From Candidatus Peregrinibacteria bacterium (GTDB taxonomy: Bacteria; Patescibacteriota; Gracilibacteria; UBA1369; UM-FILTER-53-11), in contig JACRID010000060.1 in the NCBI GenBank assembly GCA_016220145.1, positions 742 to 24,741 of the forward strand: 24,000 bases of DNA, given 5' to 3'. The notes under the pieces were generated by a model that was given only the letters and a program-made list of their open reading frames with translations, did no database searches and was not told the origin of the DNA. The position numbers and the translations under genes are program-made. Numbering within the stretch: the stretch's first letter is position 1; each line of letters begins with the position of its first letter. Positions 1 through 18,948 of this stretch are shown here, piece after piece.

Positions 1-63
1 ACCGGCGATATCAGCGAAACGGAAGGGATCGAATACGCGCTGGTTCTTGAAGAGGTTCGTGAA

Positions 64-1314
64 TTGTTCATAAAATTGCGCGATTTAACGGCCGTCATGG
101 CGGCCGCCGTTAAGCCAAAACTGATGCATTATATGGGAGATCTTGTGAAAATCCGCCGCAATGGTGAAATTAAGATCAACACCAATGGTTTGCATAAATT
201 CTTGAACGGGACATCCAGTTTCTCAATCGCCATTGACAATAGCCGCTCTCAACGAGTCGTAATTTTTGACGTTGGCTATGCATATTTTTTAATCGAACTT
301 GAACGCGCCCTTTGTCGTGAGACCTACGATGTGCTTTTGGAGAAATATCCCGACCCCATCGTGAGAGAAGCCATTGTCTGTCGGTTGTTCGCGGAGCAAG
401 CACCTGACCCCATTTTGGAAAGCGGCCAGTCCAGTTACGCCGTGTACCTTCTTGCCTTGCATCGCTACCGCACTTCTTTTAAAGATCATGCCTGCCATTT
501 TGCGCAACTTTTTACGTTGCCGCCCCAACAGCCCGGTGAGACCGGTGACGCCGATATTCTGCGTGAAATTCGAGAATTATCCATGTTTCGCACGATAGAT
601 TTTTCCGCTCACGTCGATGGGTGCACCATAAAATTTGCACCGATGGTTAAATATGATGAGGAGGATTCTCATTTTCAACGCCCATTTTCAATATGCATTG
701 CGATGATCGAGGCCGATTCGGCGGAAAAAGATAAACCCGGAGCCCGTTTGGCCGGCATGATAAATCGGCTTACCGGAGACTTTGACATTGGAAGCGGCGA
801 AGATTTGGCCAATCTTACCAATAAAGACACAGCCCTTCACGTCAAGAGGGTGCTTTACCGGCTTATTTTGGACCACCTAAGAAATATGCCTGAAGACATT
901 GCTCGCTCGGCACCCACGCTTAAGCCGCAAAAAATTGCGGAGGAGACGCGTGATGCCGCCGAACAGGTTGTGGCTGATGATACGGAGATAGCGGCGGAAA
1001 CGGAAACTGAGACGGTGATCGTGGCGGAAGAAGTGGAGATACCGACTCCGGAAAGCCCACGGTGCGCGGTTGCAAAGCCGACCGCAACAATCGCCAATCT
1101 TCGCGGAGTACCCGGCAGCCGCATCAAAGGCGCTCTCGACATTTTACTTGGTCCGCCCCTTCGCGTCAGCGGCAGCCATCACGTATACAGAACGCGCCAA
1201 GGTGGAACGTACCCGATCCCCCTCCATGGAACTGACGAGGTTGGCACCGGCATACTCAATAAATGTCTGCGTGAATTCGGAATAACTCCCGCGGAATTGC
1301 GCGGGTGTCTTTAA
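64..1314 (+). CDS. Hypothetical protein with C-terminal HicA-like (YcfA family) domain; N-terminal region of unknown function
   Basis: Long frame-1 ORF. Possible starts are TTG at 64 (AGAGG 8 nt upstream) or ATG at 97. The frame stays open back to nt 1, so the true start may lie outside the window. The last ~65 aa (nt ~1105-1311: RVSGSHHVYRTRQGGTYPIPLHGTDEVGTGILNKCLREFGITPAEL) fit the HicA pattern GSHH...P-x-H-G...G-T-x-x-x-x-L-x-x-x-G-I. An acidic E/T/A-rich linker spans nt ~940-1060. I recognise no motif in the first ~280 aa. Confidence 0.6.
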   Translation: MFIKLRDLTAVMAAAVKPKLMHYMGDLVKIRRNGEIKINTNGLHKFLNGTSSFSIAIDNSRSQRVVIFDVGYAYFLIELERALCRETYDVLLEKYPDPIVREAIVCRLFAEQAPDPILESGQSSYAVYLLALHRYRTSFKDHACHFAQLFTLPPQQPGETGDADILREIRELSMFRTIDFSAHVDGCTIKFAPMVKYDEEDSHFQRPFSICIAMIEADSAEKDKPGARLAGMINRLTGDFDIGSGEDLANLTNKDTALHVKRVLYRLILDHLRNMPEDIARSAPTLKPQKIAEETRDAAEQVVADDTEIAAETETETVIVAEEVEIPTPESPRCAVAKPTATIANLRGVPGSRIKGALDILLGPPLRVSGSHHVYRTRQGGTYPIPLHGTDEVGTGILNKCLREFGITPAELRGCL

Positions 1315-1369: not shown

Positions 1370-2425
1370 ATGAGAAGCGGTTCAGATACAAAACGTGAAC
1401 TTGGAGAATCTTTTAAAAAGATTCTTGATTCCGCCTCTGCGAAAGGGGCTATTCGTCCAATCAAGAAGGTCCATAAACTGCTTTATGATGCCGCGGGCGG
1501 CAGAACGCCATATTCCGACAAGGATTCAACTCAACTGAAGAGCGGACTGGCCGTATCCCCGAGCGGCGCGGCGGCTTGCCTGCTTGATTACGAACGAACA
1601 CGGCAATTTGTGCGCGGTTTAAATATGGCCATCACCGAAGCGCGCAAACACTTTCATGATGAGGTTATTCAGGTTTTATATGCGGGCTGCGGTCCGTTTG
1701 CTCCCCTGGCGATTGCGCAATGTTGGACTTTTTCCCCTGACAAAGTTCAGTTTACGTTGCTGGATATTCATGAAACATCGGTGGATATTGCGCGAGCAAT
1801 TGTCCAATCTTTTGACCTGAAAAGGCACTGCCCGAGAATAATAAAGGCCGACGCCACTAAATATAAATGCCAAGGCGCAAGGCCACACATCGTCGTCACG
1901 GAGACCATGATGTCGACATTGATGTATGAACCGCAAGCGGCAATAACGGCAAATTTGGCTCCCGAAATGCGTCACGGCGGGATTTTTGTGCCGGAAGAAG
2001 TGGCCCTGGACGCTTACATTGAGGAACCTCCCGAGTCGGGCCATCTTGATGGACCAAAACGGCCCTTGGGTCTGGTTTTTCGCCTGACAAAAGATACCCG
2101 TCCGAATGCAAAAATTAAGTCTGAATTTGCTCTTCCTGCAGTAAAATCCAAAAAAGGATTTGAGAACCTGCTGATCTCGACGCGCGTGCGCGTGTTCGGG
2201 AACATCGCCATTGAACCCGATACTGCGGAAATAACAAAATCTCTTTTTGTCACATCATTTGACAGGGAAGACGAAGGTTCGCTTGTTGCCATGGAATATG
2301 TTCCGGGGGATACTTTTTTGAAATATGTGATGCAAGGCGACGGACCATTTAAGGAGACCCGCCTCGCATTCCCCGCCGTCAGGTCGGAATTCACGGAAGG
2401 CCAGCTGTCCTTTCGACCAAAATAA
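1370..2425 (+). CDS. Putative class I SAM-dependent methyltransferase with PRMT-like double-E loop
   Basis: 351-aa ORF with ATG start, 55 nt after the previous stop. Glycine-rich motif-I-like VLYAGCGPFAPLA (nt ~1673-1711) is followed by an acidic post-I residue (FTLLDIHE). TETMMSTLMYE (E at 1901-1903 and 1928-1930) has the E-x8-E spacing and the M/L/Y positions of the PRMT double-E loop SEWMGYCLFYE. A ~135-aa C-terminal domain follows the Rossmann-type core, as in PRMTs. Confidence 0.6.
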   Translation: MRSGSDTKRELGESFKKILDSASAKGAIRPIKKVHKLLYDAAGGRTPYSDKDSTQLKSGLAVSPSGAAACLLDYERTRQFVRGLNMAITEARKHFHDEVIQVLYAGCGPFAPLAIAQCWTFSPDKVQFTLLDIHETSVDIARAIVQSFDLKRHCPRIIKADATKYKCQGARPHIVVTETMMSTLMYEPQAAITANLAPEMRHGGIFVPEEVALDAYIEEPPESGHLDGPKRPLGLVFRLTKDTRPNAKIKSEFALPAVKSKKGFENLLISTRVRVFGNIAIEPDTAEITKSLFVTSFDREDEGSLVAMEYVPGDTFLKYVMQGDGPFKETRLAFPAVRSEFTEGQLSFRPK

Positions 2426-2429
2426 TCTT

Positions 2430-3055
2430 ATGAACACACCTTTTCGACAAGAATTGCGGGAATCCATGCACGGCATTATGGACAGCCGCGATATCCATAG
2501 TGTCCCTTACGCAATGGCGACCCTTAAAATTTGCGGGCAAATGGCGCCGTCCAAGCCGAAACCCGAATGGATACATTCCACCGTGACGCCGGCGGGTCGT
2601 GCGATATCTCCCGCGGACGCGGCTCAGTGTTTACGAGATTGCGAGCGCACATATCATTTTGCGCACGGATTAAAAGACGCCATCAAGGAGGCGCAAAACC
2701 GTTTTCGAGGAGAAGTCATCCGTGTGTTTTATGCCGGTTGCGGGCCGTTTGCTCCGCTGGCATTAACTCAAACCGCCGTATTTTCGCCGGACGAAATCAA
2801 ATTTACGGCTCTGGATATCCATCATTATTCAGTTGAGCTTGCTCGTTCCATCGCCGAAGCACGAATGCAGTTATTGAATCCGACGCGGCATATATAACCG
2901 CGCCGCTTATGGTCACGTCGTTTATTGCGGAACATGCTGCGGGTTGCCGAATAAGGTTAATGTATAAACCCGGAGACGCCTGTTTAAAATACGCAACGAG
3001 AGGAAGCAACGGGCCTTGGGGGAAGACATGTGAGGTATGCCCTCGTGAAACCTAA
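2430..3055 (+). pseudogene. Decayed tandem paralog of the upstream methyltransferase-like gene (frameshift plus internal deletion)
   Basis: The frame-3 ORF 2430-2897 aligns to residues ~55-145 of the 1370-2425 product: AISPADAAQCLRDCERTYHFAHGLKDAIKEAQNRFRGEVIRVFYAGCGPFAPLALTQTAVFSPDEIKFTALDIHHYSVELARSIAEA versus AVSPSGAAACLLDYERTRQFVRGLNMAITEARKHFHDEVIQVLYAGCGPFAPLAIAQCWTFSPDKVQFTLLDIHETSVDIARAIVQS. Homology then continues in frame 2: NAVIESDAAYI ~ PRIIKADATKY. It jumps directly to LMVTSFIAEHAAGCRIRLMYKPGDACLKYATRGSNGPWGKT ~ LFVTSFDREDEGSLVAMEYVPGDTFLKYVMQGDGPFKET, ending at TAA 3053-3055. About 120 codons are missing, including the double-E loop. Confidence 0.75.
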
Positions 3056-3056
3056 C

Positions 3057-6000
3057 TTACTTTTGCGCTTCCAGCTTGCTTTTATCCACTTTTTCGCCGA
3101 GCAGAAGGATGCACTCGCGCAGTTCGTCAAACCAGTTCAGGCCCAAATATTCAATGGCGATTCTCATTTTGCTTCCGCTGATTTGCCAGCGCGGATTGTG
3201 CTGCAGCATGTAAACGATACTTTCCGGTTTCACCTTTTTGCCCATAAACAAAACAATATGTTTGCCGGTTTGCATGTGGATGTTTTCCGCCTTAACGACA
3301 GTTAATCCCGCCTTTTTGGCAAGAATTTTGAGCTCGATCACGCGGAATAAATTGGAAACTTCGCGCGGCAATTTTCCAAAATCTTCAACGACGTCGTCTT
3401 TAAGTTCATCCAAATATTGCGAACTGTCGGCCGCCGCCATTCTCTGATAAATATTAATTTTCTCCTTGGAATTAACAATATAGTCGTCCGGAATGTATGC
3501 CGTGAGCGGTAATTCAATTGCCACCTCCGGTTCCTCTGCGGCTTCTTCGGTAAATCTGCCTGCCTGCAAATCTTCAACCGCCTTATTCAACATGCGAATA
3601 AAATGACTTACGCCGACCACGTTGATGACCCCGTGTTGGTTGACGCCCAAAATGTCACCGGCTCCGCGAATTTCCAAATCCTTCATAGCAATTTGGAATC
3701 CGGAACCAAGCTCGGAGGCCTCCACAATCGCACGCAAACGCTTTTTGGCATCAAGGCGCAATCGCTGAGAGTGGTGCAAAAAGTATGCATACGCCTGAGT
3801 TTTTGAACGCCCAACGCGACCGCGCAATTGATAAAGCTGAGCCAGTCCGAATTTTTCCGCGTTATTCACAATCAAAGTATTTGCGTTTGCCAAGTCGATT
3901 CCATTTTCAATAATTGTCGAGCTCACCAGTACGTCGAATTTGTGATCCTTGAAGTCCAAAATGCGCTCCTCCAAATCCTTGCTGAGCAGCTTGCCGTGCG
4001 CCACGCAAAATCGCGCTTCCGGAATCAAGGCCTTTAATCTTTCCGCGATCGCATCGATCGTCTGCACGCGGTTGTGTAGAAAATAAACCTGTCCGCCGCG
4101 CCTTATCTCGCGCAAAATCGCCTCGCGAATAAGTTCGTGAGAATATTTTCTAACCTCCGTGATCACCGGCAAACGTCCCGGCGGCGGAGTTGTAATCGTG
4201 GAAATATCGCGCAATTTATTAAGGCAAATATTCAGCGTTCGCGGAATCGGCGTCGCCGTCAGCGTCAAAATATCCACCTCCGTGCGCAGCTTTTTAAACC
4301 GCTCTTTTTGCTTCACGCCAAACCTTTGCTCCTCGTCAATAACCACGAGCCCAAGGTCTTTAAACTTAATGTCTTTCTGCAAAAGCCTGTGAGTTCCGAC
4401 CACAATGTCGATTTCGCCCTTCCCAAGTTTATCCAAAATCACGCGCTGCTCGCGCTGCGAGCGGAAGCGCGACAGCATCTCCACGCGCACATTGAACGGC
4501 TCCATTCTTTTCACAAAAGAGCGATAATGCTGATCGGCCAAAATCGTGATCGGCGAAATGAGCGCGACCTGTTTTTTGCTTGCCACGGCCTTAAACGCCG
4601 CACGCATGGCGACTTCCGTTTTGCCAAAACCCACGTCGCCGCAAATCAACCTGTCCATCGGTTCCGCCTTTTCCATGTCCTGTTTCACGTCGGCAATCGC
4701 CTTTATTTGCCCCGGCGTTTCCTGATACGGGAAAGTTTTTTCAAATTTAACCTGTTCCAGGTCATCCTGATCAAAACCGAGTCCGTGCGCCTGTTTTCTC
4801 TTGGCGTATAATTCCAAGAGTTCGCGCGCGATCTGTTCCGTTTCCTTGCGGACGCGTTTCGTCATCGTGGCCCATTCCGCGGAACCGAGCCTCGTCAGCT
4901 TCGGCGCTTCTTCTTCCGCACCGACAAACTTATTCACCTTATCCGCCTGGTCGATCGGCACGAAAAGTTTGTCGTTTTCGGCATATCCCAGCTTCATGTA
5001 TTCGCGGGTAATGCCGTCCACCATGCGTTTTTCGAGCCCCTCAAACCTCGCGATTCCATGATTTATGTGCACAACCAAATCGTCCTGTTTCAATGTCGTC
5101 AAAAATTCCCAAAACACGCGTTCGGCGACTTTTTTATGTTTTTCCTCGTATAAATTCGCAATTTCCTTATCGGCGATGACCAAAATTTTCCCGTCGCTGC
5201 ACTGAAAAGAATGCGGCGCCACCTCCTCTTTTTCAAGATCAACGATGCGCACTGTGGATTTCTGAAAATCCACGCCGTCCTCAAAGATCGCATCTCCATC
5301 CCCAAAATTCATCTTTCTGTCTTTTAAAAGTTCCCGAATCGCCGGCCCGTGTTTTGTGAAATAAATCGCCCGCCAATTTTGCAGCGATTTCTCCTTCAGT
5401 TCGTTGGCCAAATCCATCAAGTCCTGATATTTCAAAACCGAAAGATAGCGCAAATTCCGGTGAAACGGCTCGTCCTCGGGAAAAGACGTAAACGTAATGA
5501 GCCGCGTTTCCTTTGAACGCTTTGCAAAAACGTCGTCCCACGCCTCGTAAAATTCGTCCGTCACATCCAGTTCGTCGTCCACAATCAAACCGCCATCCGG
5601 CATGAATTGGAAGAAATTCTGCCCTTTAAACTCCACGTTGATCGGGTATACGAAGGTGCTTTTTACGTGTTGAATCACGTCTCCGCTGTCCTGGCTGTAT
5701 TCAAAAATATCCGACACGCGGTCAAATTCAAACTCTATGCGCACCGGCGAATCGGCATTTACGGGGAACACGTTCAAAACACCTCCTTTGCCCAAATACG
5801 TGCCCCTTTCCAGGTATTCATCTTTTGAAACTTCGTATCCCGCGGCAATCAGTTTTTCAAAAATTTCCACATTGGAAATGGCTTCGTTAAGCTGAATTTT
5901 TATGGTCCTGCGTTTTAAATCTTCAACATCGGGAACTTCTTTCATCAGGGCCGAATATGGAGCCACTATAATTTGCCGATTTTCTTCCACCAAAAATTTC

Positions 6001-11537: not shown

Positions 11538-13070
11538 TCACACTTCCTCCCTTACTTCACTAGGCTCCGTCTTTCTTAAGAGGCTCCACATATCCTTCGA
11601 AACAGCTTTTGTTAGCAACATGCACGCCACGAAAACGATTCCGCCGATCGGCATTAAGATAAACAGGCTCTTCGTGAAAAGCAGTTTGTTGAAGTAGTCG
11701 GTGATGGAATTCAAAACAATTCCCATCACAAGCGCCGAAAACGCAGTCTTCGCCAAGAACGGCAAGTCCCAAATCCCACGGATTCTTTTCTTCGTGCGTA
11801 TAAAAAGGCACGCGAGCATCGTTAATTCCGAGGCCGCCGCAGAAATCGATGCGCCAATAAATCCATACCGTGGTGCCAAAAATAAATTTAATCCGACATT
11901 AACGATTACCGTAATCCCATTAATCCACAAAAGCTCCACCTGTCGCCCCATTGCAACCAACGTGTAGCTTAGCGCAACGTGAATATAAGTGAACGTCATT
12001 GCCACCAGCAAAATTTTAAGCGCCAAATCGGAACCCCAAATAAAGCCGGTTGCTGTGCGTTCCGTCAAAAAGTCTGGGCTGCTCACCGCGGCCGTTATTG
12101 GCCACGCCAAAACGTAACCGCCAACCATGATAGGTATAGCCATTGCCGCCAATGCGTCAATTGAATAGCGAACAATGCGGCCGGTCTTTTCATTAATACT
12201 GTCGAGGCTTATCGTCAAAAGCGGCAAAACCGAATTCATAAAATAATGCGGAAGAATTTGCAGAATTTCCAAAAAGCGCATTGGTACGCCATAATATCCA
12301 ATCTGCTCTTTCATCTCAAATAAGGACAACATGACAGTGCCCATGCGGAAATAAATGGTGCCGAGAACCAGTGCGGTTCCATACGGCAGTGCCTTCACTA
12401 AAACTTCTTTCCAAAATTTGAAATCAAATTGAAAAGAAATTGGTATTAATTTTGTAGACGCCGCGTACGTCGTGACGACATTGATCAACCCGCCGCCGAT
12501 CCAGCCCAAAAGCAAATGAGGAAAGCCAGCGACCGGGTCGTTCGGATACAGATACAATATGGTTGCCAAAATGTAGCCGACAGTAAATATTTTACTGATT
12601 AAAATTGAGATTGATGCCCATTTCATGCGCAAATGGAACTGCAAAACCGACGACATTGTGCCGGCAATTAAGGTAAAAACCGTGGCGATGGAAACCAACA
12701 AAATGCCAAATGGAATATGGCTGCCGCGGTATGCGGGCATCACGGCCGCAATGAGTGCGCCAATCCCCAAAGCAAATATCGCCAGTCCGGTGCGCATGGA
12801 CAAAACATTCCCGACGATTTTTTGGATGGCGGATTTTTCATTCGAATGCGCCATCTCGCGCACGGCGATTGTAAACAAGCCAAAATCCGCGATTATCGCG
12901 AACATGGCGGTGTAGTCATAAATGGTCGTATATTCGCCATAAGTGCTTTTGGTCAGGTAGTTGGTGATGAATTTTACGCTGACTATTCCAAGGACCGCGG
13001 TTACAACCTTTCCTATAACTTGCCACGCGGTATTCGAAAGAATTTTTCTGGCTTGCGACATCTTCCCCAT
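11538..13070 (-). CDS. MOP-superfamily lipid-linked oligosaccharide flippase (Wzx/MurJ-like polysaccharide biosynthesis protein)
   Basis: 510 aa and strongly hydrophobic throughout, with roughly 12-14 predicted TM segments. The N-terminus ILSNTAWQVIGKVVTAVLGIVSVKFITNYL...YGEYTTIY resembles Wzx/Polysacc_synt proteins. Its position beside murD is compatible with lipid II export. Confidence 0.7.
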   Translation of the reverse strand: MGKMSQARKILSNTAWQVIGKVVTAVLGIVSVKFITNYLTKSTYGEYTTIYDYTAMFAIIADFGLFTIAVREMAHSNEKSAIQKIVGNVLSMRTGLAIFALGIGALIAAVMPAYRGSHIPFGILLVSIATVFTLIAGTMSSVLQFHLRMKWASISILISKIFTVGYILATILYLYPNDPVAGFPHLLLGWIGGGLINVVTTYAASTKLIPISFQFDFKFWKEVLVKALPYGTALVLGTIYFRMGTVMLSLFEMKEQIGYYGVPMRFLEILQILPHYFMNSVLPLLTISLDSINEKTGRIVRYSIDALAAMAIPIMVGGYVLAWPITAAVSSPDFLTERTATGFIWGSDLALKILLVAMTFTYIHVALSYTLVAMGRQVELLWINGITVIVNVGLNLFLAPRYGFIGASISAAASELTMLACLFIRTKKRIRGIWDLPFLAKTAFSALVMGIVLNSITDYFNKLLFTKSLFILMPIGGIVFVACMLLTKAVSKDMWSLLRKTEPSEVREEV

Positions 13071-13184
13071 TTTAGCGCATTTCCTGTATCCTACACACGA
13101 GCAAAGCGAGTGTGCTTCGTTCTTTCGTCCCCGTTAGGGCGTTCGGGAGGGGGACGGAGAGTGGCTGCGCTCCATAAAATCACC

Positions 13185-14288
13185 ATGCAAGAACTGAAGC
13201 CTAAACTTGAAGAACTTAATCGCCTGATTCTGCGCGGGCTGGATTGTCTTGATGTTCCCAGGCTGAAAAAACGCATTGGGGAACTGGAAGAAATCACCAG
13301 CGCGCCGGAATTTTGGAGCAATCAAAGGCATGCAAAAGAAATTGGTCAGGAGTTGAAGCATCTGCAGGTTTTGGTGAAAGATTGGGAGGATTCAAAACGC
13401 GATGTTGATGAGCTTTCGGCCATGTTGCCGACGATTCACCCTGAAGATGATCCAAAGGCGGCGGAGGAATTTCGCGGAATGGTGGCGGAGTTGGGACATC
13501 GTTTTGAGAGGTTAAATCGCGAATCTTTCTTCTCTAGCAAATATGACAAAAATAACGTGATTATTTTGATTCACGCGGGAACGGGAGGAAAAGACGCCCA
13601 GGATTGGGCCCAGATGCTGATGCGAATGTATGTAAGATATGCGGAAAGGCGCGGCTACGGTGTGGAAATTTTGGACGAGTCATATGGCGAAGAAGTCGGC
13701 ATGAAAAGCGCCACAATTTTGATCTCGGGAATATATGCATATGGCTATTTGAAGGGAGAAAAGGGCGTTCACAGATTGGTGCGCCTCTCACCATTTAATG
13801 CGAAAAATTCGCGCGAAACCTCGTTTTCGTTGGTGGAAGTGATGCCGGAAGTGCCGGAAGCGATCGATATAACGATAAAATCGGAAGAGTTACAGCTGGA
13901 TGCCTTTAGAGCCGGCGGAAAGGGAGGACAAAATGTGAATAAGGTAAGTTCGGCGGTTCGGCTTACTCATCTCCCGACGGGAATTGTTGTGACTTGCCAG
14001 AGCGAAAGGTCGCAGATCCAAAACCGCGAACAGGCGATGACGATTTTGCAATCGAAACTTGCTCAACTGCAGGACGAAAAGAAACTTGAGGAAATGAAGG
14101 AGTTGAAGGGCAAACGCGTGGAAATGTCATGGGGAAATCAAATTCGCTCGTATGTTTTGCATCCGTATACGATGGTAAAAGATCACCGGACGGATTATGA
14201 AACTTCCCAGACGGCAAAGGTATTAGATGGCGACCTGGACGGTTTTATAGAAGCCGAAATTGAGTGGGCGGCGCGTTCTAAACAATAG
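13185..14288 (+). CDS. prfB: Peptide chain release factor 2 (no programmed frameshift)
   Basis: It carries the RF2-specific SPF motif (RLVRLSPFNAKNSRETSF) and the GGQ motif (AGGKGGQNVNKVSSAVRLTHLPTGIVV). The N-terminus MQELKPKLEELNRLILRGLDCLD aligns with the RF2 start. The tracked ORF begins at 12717, but ATG 13185 gives a normal 367-aa RF2. The usual CTT TGA C shift site is replaced by in-frame CTT GAT G (13248-13254). Confidence 0.93.
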   Translation: MQELKPKLEELNRLILRGLDCLDVPRLKKRIGELEEITSAPEFWSNQRHAKEIGQELKHLQVLVKDWEDSKRDVDELSAMLPTIHPEDDPKAAEEFRGMVAELGHRFERLNRESFFSSKYDKNNVIILIHAGTGGKDAQDWAQMLMRMYVRYAERRGYGVEILDESYGEEVGMKSATILISGIYAYGYLKGEKGVHRLVRLSPFNAKNSRETSFSLVEVMPEVPEAIDITIKSEELQLDAFRAGGKGGQNVNKVSSAVRLTHLPTGIVVTCQSERSQIQNREQAMTILQSKLAQLQDEKKLEEMKELKGKRVEMSWGNQIRSYVLHPYTMVKDHRTDYETSQTAKVLDGDLDGFIEAEIEWAARSKQ

Positions 14289-18039: not shown

Positions 18040-18300
18040 ATGAAGATAAAAAAACGGCATTTTTCACTCCTTAAAAAGTACCTGTGGTGGTATCGCGGGG
18101 ACGCCAAGGATGTTTTCGACAAGGTTAAAACAAATAAAATCATTACGTATGTTTTGAACTTTGGAGATTACGGAGATCTCAATAAGCTACTCCCCATTTT
18201 CTCAAAAAACGATATAAAAAAAACGCTCGAAACTCCGCTTCACGGCGTGTGGGACAAGAAATCGCTGAATTTTTGGACGCTTTATTTCGGCAAAGATTGA
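18040..18300 (+). CDS. Small hypothetical protein, putative partner/antitoxin of the downstream nucleotidyltransferase
   Basis: 86-aa ORF with ATG start. Its stop is 3 nt before the next start, a translationally coupled layout. I recognise no domain with confidence; the role is assigned by position only. Confidence 0.45.
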   Translation: MKIKKRHFSLLKKYLWWYRGDAKDVFDKVKTNKIITYVLNFGDYGDLNKLLPIFSKNDIKKTLETPLHGVWDKKSLNFWTLYFGKD

Positions 18301-18303
18301 CTT

Positions 18304-18948
18304 ATGCATATTGATGTTTTGCCATCTCAACAACGGAATCTGGCCAAGCTCATTGGAAACTGGCCGCCAGCAAAAGATTTTTATCTTGCCGGAGGAACAG
18401 CTTTGACTTTGCAGATAGGTCACCGCCGGTCCGCGGATTTTGATTTTTTTTCCAAGAAAGCCTTTTCCGCAGAGAAATTATTGGAAAATATTGAGGATTA
18501 TTTCAAGATGCCGGTTCGGGTTTTACAGATAGATAATCATACTTTGACGATTTTACTGAAAGACGTACGCGTAAGTTTTTTTGGCGCTTATGGGTTTCCC
18601 CTGATCGGTAAGCTTTTGCGCGACTTTTATTTCCCGGTCGCATCTGCGGAAGATATTTTCGCCATGAAACTGCTTGCAATTCAACACCGTACCGAAATGA
18701 AAGATTACGTCGATATTTTGGCTCTAATTGAGCAATCCGGGATAAATTTGCAAAAAGGGATTAGTTTGGCCCAAAAGAAATTTAGCGCATCTTTTAACTC
18801 CATGATTTCCCTTAAAGCATTGGTTTATTTTGACGATTTGGATTCGCGCGAACTATTCGCAATCGCCTTTGTAGGGAAAAAATCGCCTATCAATTTTAAA
18901 TTGCTGAAACAAAAGCTCATCTCAGAGGTTAGGTCTGTTCAAATATAA
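18304..18948 (+). CDS. AbiEii/AbiGii-family nucleotidyltransferase (type IV toxin-antitoxin toxin-like)
   Basis: The N-terminal motif FYLAGGTALTLQIGHRRSADFDFF matches the GGTAL...HR-x-S-x-D-x-D-F signature of the AbiEii (DUF1814) family. The later KDYVDILAL matches its KD-x-x-D segment. Confidence 0.65.
   Translation: MHIDVLPSQQRNLAKLIGNWPPAKDFYLAGGTALTLQIGHRRSADFDFFSKKAFSAEKLLENIEDYFKMPVRVLQIDNHTLTILLKDVRVSFFGAYGFPLIGKLLRDFYFPVASAEDIFAMKLLAIQHRTEMKDYVDILALIEQSGINLQKGISLAQKKFSASFNSMISLKALVYFDDLDSRELFAIAFVGKKSPINFKLLKQKLISEVRSVQI

Follow-up and report, generated by a model that had tools for sequence, protein, structure and literature searches.

Most work on HicA concerns a 60-residue toxin that is restrained by HicB. 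How such a domain might be controlled when it is built into a much larger protein and no antitoxin gene lies beside it is a question that has been raised for fused classes of HicA protein (PMC10865869), and it is raised again by the gene at the beginning of a 24,000-nucleotide stretch of DNA from a Candidatus Peregrinibacteria bacterium (contig JACRID010000060.1; the whole of this stretch is referred to below as the window). An original prediction, made from the letters of the window alone, held that this gene fuses a HicA-like module to the end of a long uncharacterised region and that it has no HicB partner. In the analysis described here, the C-terminus of the protein is found to be a complete HicA-type domain, the two-domain protein is found to be real and conserved as a family, and no antitoxin gene accompanies the fused gene in the genomic contexts examined. 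The interpretation favoured below, at a probability of roughly one half, is that the protein is a single-chain HicA ribonuclease (RNase) which operates without HicB, is controlled in cis by its N-terminal domain and linker, and acts in genetic conflict or defence.

The assignment of the C-terminus to the HicA toxin family is supported by sequence profiles, by the predicted fold and by the glycine and histidine of the β1-β2 turn. The module, which resembles a double-stranded RNA-binding domain, comprises 76 amino acids (window residues 362-437, nucleotides 1084-1311 of the + strand) and has an isoelectric point (pI) of 9.7. The Pfam HicA_toxin model (PF07927) matches residues 388-428 of the window protein with an expectation value (E) of 3.8e-6 and a score of 27.3 bits, which is borderline for a single sequence since the gathering cut-off is 27 bits; the same model matches 42-44 of 51 members of the family described below at E <= 0.01, with a best value of 1.4e-9. 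A profile built from 32 family tails finds the structure 1whz, a HicA-family protein of T. thermophilus, at E = 2.4e-5. In the AlphaFold2 (AF2) model, which was computed from a 51-sequence alignment (mean predicted local distance difference test score, pLDDT, 84; predicted template-modelling score, pTM, 0.74) and replaces a poor earlier model computed from three sequences (pLDDT 59), the tail has a pLDDT above 90 throughout and is arranged as α-β-β-β-α followed by a short terminal helix (helices 448-459 and 492-502; strands 464-466, 469-473 and 479-483). When the modelled tail is compared with the PDB by Foldseek, the only confident matches are HicA structures: 1whz (probability 1.00, template-modelling (TM) score 0.76, root-mean-square deviation 2.1 Å) and two chains of B. 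pseudomallei HicA, 6g26_E (probability 0.96, TM score 0.76) and 6g26_F (probability 0.91). The HicA-like module of the original prediction is thus borne out by significant profile and fold matches as well as by the catalytic motif.

That motif lies in the turn between strands β1 and β2, where the window protein carries the predicted GSHH (G391-S392-H393-H394, nucleotides 1171-1182). The turn is equivalent to Gly22-Ser23-His24 of B. pseudomallei HicA, in which the substitutions G22C and H24A abolish toxicity (PMC3969222). The glycine, serine and histidine are invariant in the family alignment A5 and nearly so in A3, which covers the full family, the exact string GSH is found in 47 of 53 family tails, and the Gly-Ser-His turn (nucleotides 1171-1179) is the most conserved feature across the whole family. 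A second histidine, H409 (nucleotides 1225-1227), stands in the sequence PIPLHG of the β3-α2 loop and is at least 90% conserved in A5; a histidine is frequent at position 40 of HicA proteins, where it is spatially near His24 (PMC3969222). The module is basic in nearly all members, with a median pI of 9.8 and a value above 8.5 in 48 of 49. As judged from these retained residues, the HicA module is catalytically intact.

The gene itself occupies frame 1 of the + strand, which is open from nucleotide 1 of the window to a stop codon at 1312-1314 and contains both of the peptides quoted in the original prediction. The suspicion that part of the protein lies upstream, which was raised by a frame open to the first nucleotide, is settled by L003, a second and independent assembly of this locus, which is identical to the window, with 0 mismatches in 9,881 nucleotides, and extends beyond its edge. 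There the full gene runs from 1555 to 3084, and nucleotide 1 of the window corresponds to nucleotide 1771, so that the gene starts 216 nucleotides before the window and its first 72 codons fall outside it. What the window holds (1-1314 of the + strand) is therefore codons 73-509 and the stop codon, or 86% of the gene at its 3' side, and this part encodes 437 residues. The full protein has 509 amino acids if it begins at an ATG codon and 523 if it begins at an upstream GTG, and the ATG start of the 509-residue version aligns with the start of the closest relative. The predicted length of at least 416 amino acids is accordingly true but short, and the region to which the HicA module is fused, given as about 350 amino acids, is about 430 amino acids long. 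At the end of the gene a weak terminator-like hairpin, CCCGCG-GAATTG-CGCGGG followed by TGTCTTTAAA, overlaps the last codons (nucleotides 1288-1305 of the + strand; L003 3058-3075), which may mean that the fused HicA gene is transcribed on its own; the consensus scan that picked it out found fewer such sites than in shuffled sequence, so that the hairpin is only suggestive.

A partner gene was sought in the neighbourhoods of the family, which were compared at 15 loci that represent 12 distinct genomic contexts. No HicB-type gene was detected with Pfam in the flanks of any of the 12, and none of the neighbouring genes is conserved across them. The absence of an adjacent HicB-like gene, as originally predicted, holds both within the window and in the upstream part of the contig, whose inspection had been recommended and was made possible by L003; a 103-residue open reading frame (ORF) upstream in L003 was considered as a HicB and rejected, as it has no Pfam match. 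A local search with hidden Markov models (HMMs) found neither a second family copy nor a stand-alone HicA in the 24-kb window. In the window and L003 the fused gene is preceded by an ACT-domain gene on the opposite strand and followed by a methyltransferase-like gene and then by Mfd. Elsewhere the neighbours differ: asparaginase lies downstream in L001, a convergent malate/lactate dehydrogenase gene (Mdh) downstream in L002 and L004-L006 (with rnpA, yidC and jag upstream in L004/L005), a convergent TrmB gene downstream in L007 and a divergent TrmB gene upstream in L011, which also has NusA in its neighbourhood, while a convergent HU gene and topoisomerase I are found near the family gene of L014. 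Two loci have neighbours of another kind, in that the family genes of L008 adjoin a Bro-N gene and are followed by a Phd/PIN pair and an AAA_14 gene, and L013 has a type I restriction-modification system next to it.

The gene that follows in the window (1370-2425, + strand) encodes 351 amino acids and was described in the original prediction as methyltransferase-like, a description that stands only weakly. The protein, which is 100% identical to NCBI HZA42_04105, matches Methyltransf_25 at E = 0.1, and its 106 homologs are mostly unannotated, with a few that carry PF13649 or PF13847, or a GNAT fusion; it also has a weak match to the PADLOC model mad2 (E = 6.5e-5). As a functional partner of the fused HicA gene it was rejected, since its homologs show no link to the family at other loci: L001 has asparaginase downstream, and L015 is without a family member.

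Ahead of the linker and the toxin domain stands the N-terminal domain, which in the window spans residues 1-314 (nucleotides 1-942, + strand) and is mostly helical with a five-stranded β subdomain. In the model, numbered according to the family member P0001, a helical region (24-263) is followed by the β subdomain (271-334) and by a long conserved helix (346-366) with the motif Y..LL.YL..KP.DI; the conserved helix of the window protein, located from the conservation map, is YRLILDHLRNMPEDI (nucleotides 856-900, + strand). The most conserved stretches are residues 21-100, 260-270 and 320-380, while residues 120-250 are variable. The original prediction had recognised no motif in this region, and the searches agree: no family for the domain is found in Pfam, NCBIfam, PADLOC or PHROG, and no weak match recurs among members, the PHROG matches of the fused protein being made through the HicA tail only. 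A comparison of the whole protein with PDB chain sequences gives only noise. The structure prediction and Foldseek search that had been proposed for the N-terminal part yield no match in the PDB or BFVD, and Foldseek detects in it no partial RNase H fold of the HicB type. On the strength of the model, the fold of the N-terminal domain thus appears to be previously undescribed. Signal peptides and transmembrane segments are absent, the maximum Kyte-Doolittle value over 19 amino acids being 1.27.

The two domains differ in charge. The N-terminal domain is acidic, with a median pI of 5.4 across the family, and it is joined to the basic HicA module by a linker that in the window protein (residues 315-361, nucleotides 943-1083, + strand) has a net charge of -10. 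The original prediction of an acidic low-complexity linker is upheld, and the linker is disordered, the pLDDT of the corresponding residues 400-434 of P0001 being below 50. Family linkers range in length from 22 to 88 amino acids and share no conserved sequence; most are acidic, and the median net charge is -6.

The evidence that the fusion is a stable architecture comes from its relatives. A word-indexed search with the window protein recovered only two, of 513 and 530 amino acids, while a HMMER search with a profile of the N-terminal region alone, from which the HicA part had been removed, recovered 62 relatives among 1.84 billion representative proteins, 19 of them at E <= 1e-10. The HicA module ends 53 of the 55 family proteins that are at least 450 amino acids long, usually 0-7 residues from the C-terminus, and the shorter relatives resemble fragments from short contigs. 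It had been foreseen that homologs of the N-terminal region which never carry the tail and have a well-known housekeeping function would overturn the prediction; the homologs found carry the tail in these 53 of 55 cases, and no housekeeping identity was seen among them. Members of at least 450 amino acids measure 462-594 amino acids, apart from forms of 698 and 936, with a typical pairwise identity of about 20%. No family member was met in pattern scans of 185,579 GTDB species genomes, nor in scans of IMG/VR viral contigs and JGI metagenome contigs. The label Candidatus Peregrinibacteria is carried by the window and by KKU79282.1. One further member, P0128 (MFT7184001.1, locus L011), is annotated [quoted passage not shown] in a record with the unverified label Oceanicoccus sp., a gammaproteobacterium; unless this bin is mislabelled, the family is not confined to Peregrinibacteria. 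The guanine-plus-cytosine (GC) content of L013 is 0.60, compared with 0.34-0.49 in the other loci.

Two loci hold several paralogs each, and these permit the evolution of the two domains to be compared within a single neighbourhood. L008 (60-5990) contains three on the same strand, one of which is separated from the other two by the Bro-N gene, and L012 (143-5277) contains three family members, two in tandem and one opposed. The tails of neighbouring paralogs are nearly the same, with 76 of 77 residues matching in L008 and 71 of 80 in L012, whereas their N-terminal domains are only 15-55% identical. The numbers of nonsynonymous and synonymous substitutions per site (dN and dS), computed by the Nei-Gojobori method, are 0.074 and 0.93 for the HicA tail of L012 a/b and 0.66 and about 2.3 for the N-terminal domain of the same pair; for L008 b/c they are 0.006 and 0.29 in the tail and 0.53 and 1.02 in the N-terminal domain. 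The low dN relative to dS indicates strong purifying selection on the HicA tail. The lower dS of the tail suggests in addition some gene conversion between neighbours, as does the 98% nucleotide identity of the L008b and L008c tails over their first 40 codons. In L008a the GSH of the turn is changed to GKH.

The N-terminal domain is also found without HicA. P0110 (N-domain E = 6e-60) and P0112 (E = 4e-46; L014:203-1810), which by these scores are close relatives of the window protein, keep all of its conserved residues, but their C-terminal module is another one, of about 105 amino acids, which is conserved between the two and has the motif '...GRIHW(L/M)T(M/I)EQV...VPL(I/L)VPHSLNTHL(A/S)EGWKR...'. 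This module has no similarity to Pfam families, PDB entries or the HicA profile, and the idea that it is a diverged HicA was rejected on an hhalign probability of 0.1 and the lack of a PDB or Pfam match; it may be an alternative effector domain. A further unusual member is the double-length protein P0144, of 936 amino acids (L009:1645-4455 / L010:1365-4175). Parts of the family profile, and also the end of the HicA profile, match weakly to the 390 additional residues at its N-terminus, so that it resembles an intact copy with a degenerate paralog joined to it in frame on the upstream side.

Fused HicA proteins without HicB are known as a general kind, and the window family is a variant of it. 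Such fusions have been catalogued as classes 11-14 (Gerdes 2024, PMC10865869), of which class 13, with the exemplar WP_067334119.1, consists of monocistronically encoded proteins of 340-440 amino acids with a mostly α-helical N-terminal region and a canonical HicA at the C-terminus. The present family shares with class 13 the single gene without hicB, the C-terminal HicA, the large helical N-terminal region and the lack of a recognised DNA-binding domain; it poses the same question of regulation in cis and invites the same analogy with CapRel, which was proposed for fused HicA proteins in that work (PMC10865869). It differs in size, at 462-594 amino acids apart from the two longer forms (509 for the window protein), and in its β subdomain, acidic linker, paralog clusters and alternative C-terminal module, which are undescribed there (PMC10865869). 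The profile search with the N-terminal region found no HicA-tailed protein in the size range of class 13, which suggests that the two are different families, set apart by description and size rather than by sequence comparison. The N-domain family, its acidic linker, the behaviour of its paralogs and its alternative effector so far appear to be undescribed. Class 14, in which HicA is likewise appended C-terminally to a large unrelated domain, has SMC proteins in that position, whereas the N-terminal domain considered here is not SMC-like and has no long coiled coil and no match to an ATPase or any other Pfam family.

With the canonical HicAB systems of E. coli, B. pseudomallei and Y. pestis the module shares the dsRBD-like fold, the Gly-Ser-His turn, the second histidine and the basic surface. 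Unlike those systems, the family has no adjacent hicB gene, no HicB-type fold detected in its N-terminal domain and no DNA-binding domain for autoregulation, and its toxin, instead of being free and about 60 amino acids long, is part of a larger chain. A parallel in organisation is seen with the fused toxin-antitoxin phage sensors of the CapRelSJ46 type and with EzeT, in which one polypeptide likewise combines an enzymatic toxin domain with a large non-catalytic domain that could be antitoxin and sensor at once; in CapRelSJ46, too, the putative sensor part evolves quickly. The toxin of CapRelSJ46, however, is an unrelated tRNA pyrophosphokinase of the RelA/SpoT type and is N-terminal, and autoinhibition and triggering have been demonstrated for CapRel while they are only inferred for fused HicA.

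The favoured interpretation begins from the toxicity of free HicA: since the domain is normally toxic, the fused copy would have to be restrained within the same polypeptide. The basic 76-residue module is tethered by the acidic disordered linker to the acidic N-terminal domain of about 430 amino acids, which would hold the RNase inactive in cis, with the linker possibly occupying the basic RNA-binding face of HicA as an electrostatic decoy. The RNase would be released if the variable central part of the N-terminal domain met its trigger or the exposed linker were cleaved, and the cleavage of mRNA would then arrest the cell. In the original prediction the N-terminal region was suggested as a possible cis-acting inhibitor, sensor or targeting domain, an idea with which the family pattern of a fast-evolving N-terminal domain, a constrained tail, clustered paralogs and a swapped C-terminal module in two relatives is compatible. 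Charge complementarity, the asymmetry of evolutionary rates and the missing partner gene give this autoinhibition indirect support. For Peregrinibacteria and related uncultured bacteria the most likely role is, by analogy, one in genetic conflict or defence, because a constant effector is combined with a large and fast-diverging domain, with local paralog expansion, with occasional neighbours of the restriction-modification and toxin-antitoxin kind and with effector swapping, as in sensors of the CapRelSJ46 type. A more specific version, in which the N-terminal domain is a new kind of modular sensor or regulator of interchangeable effectors (HicA in most members, the module of about 105 amino acids in P0110 and P0112) and the protein a single-protein immune sensor of the abortive-infection type specific to Peregrinibacteria and related uncultured bacteria, can be put forward only tentatively; under it, the members of a paralog cluster would have one conserved effector in common while their recognition diversified.

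Several observations weigh against control in cis and a role in conflict. The GC content at the gene (0.49-0.51) is similar to that of the rest of the window, and several loci have ordinary housekeeping surroundings, among them the window, where Mfd, DnaN and RNase J are encoded near the gene. No PADLOC-DB 2.0 model matches the window protein, P0001 or P0002. Canonical hicBA pairs exist in Peregrinibacteria (PMC10865869, Table S1), and a HicB may be encoded elsewhere in the genome. P0110 and P0112, because they keep the conserved residues of the N-terminal domain without a HicA tail, provide sequence-level evidence that this domain is autonomous and functions independently of HicA, so that it is not simply an inhibitor or lid specific to HicA. 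The neighbours (including rnpA, yidC and jag in L004/L005 and NusA in L011), the unexceptional GC content, the purifying selection on the tail and a conserved function of the N-terminal domain would all suit a lineage-specific housekeeping factor for RNA binding or processing, in which HicA binds RNA, or cleaves it mildly, as a domain of a larger constitutive protein and there is no regulated toxin. Such a factor is nevertheless unlikely, given that members are only about 20% identical, that up to three divergent paralogs occur in one locus, that the neighbours are not conserved, that the family is small (62 clusters in 1.84 billion representatives) and was not met in the scans of species genomes, and that the glycine and histidine which determine toxicity are kept, not just the RNA-binding surface.

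It is still less probable that the protein is an effector resembling the polymorphic toxins, with the N-terminal domain as a delivery module that exports HicA against competitors or the host of an episymbiont and with immunity encoded elsewhere. The position of HicA at the extreme C-terminus behind a disordered linker, the different C-terminal module that P0110 and P0112 carry on the same N-terminal domain and the clustering of paralogs recall such toxins, but the protein has neither a signal peptide or transmembrane segment nor a recognisable secretion or trafficking domain, no small gene of the immunity type follows the toxin in any locus, where the downstream genes are unrelated and not conserved, and the pattern of variability is reversed, with HicA conserved and the N-terminal domain variable. 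That the fusion is an artefact of assembly or annotation, or a decaying pseudogene left by the accidental in-frame fusion of a hicA gene, might be suspected from a metagenome-assembled genome in which the frame runs off the edge of the window. This suspicion is effectively refuted by conservation across the family: the two domains are found in this arrangement in 53 independent proteins, which stem from many samples and sources, purifying selection acts on the HicA tail, and the independent assembly reproduces the locus exactly over its 9,881 nucleotides.

Some other features of the window are recorded here for completeness. Directly after the intact methyltransferase-like gene lies a degraded paralog of it (2430-3055, + strand), whose first 155 codons (2430-2897) are 44% identical to the intact gene and are followed by a frame break, with a C-terminal remnant in another frame at 2909-3055 (YKPGDACLKYATRG, compared with YVPGDTFLKYVMQG of the intact gene). 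A toxin gene for an AbiEii-type nucleotidyltransferase is found at 18304-18948 (+ strand; Pfam E = 3e-18), in the sole clearly GC-poor stretch of the window (18040-18948; 0.39, compared with about 0.47-0.51 elsewhere), and an 86-residue ORF at 18040-18300, which ends just before its start, may be the corresponding antitoxin. Shortly before the window begins, L003 carries another AbiEii gene (L003:2-664). The ORF of a release factor (12717-14288, + strand; PCRF, RF-1) is open for about 180 codons before its first domain and overlaps a polysaccharide-synthesis gene on the opposite strand (11538-13070, - strand), so that its real start must lie much further in. No Rfam match was obtained in the window or L003, and no tRNA genes were found.

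For the question of how HicA is controlled where no antitoxin gene accompanies it, the family offers a clean case for study, in which a constrained and intact HicA is always combined with one large N-terminal domain through an acidic disordered linker. Nature supplies both pairs of paralogs that differ almost only in the N-terminal domain and variants in which the effector has been swapped. If the protein should prove to be constitutive, HicA would in this family be employed as an ordinary RNA-processing domain. If, on the other hand, the N-terminal domain is both the inhibitor in cis and the sensor, it would represent a new sensor fold for defence by fused toxin-antitoxin proteins, and the system would be among the few of the defence type to be characterised from bacteria of the candidate phyla radiation.

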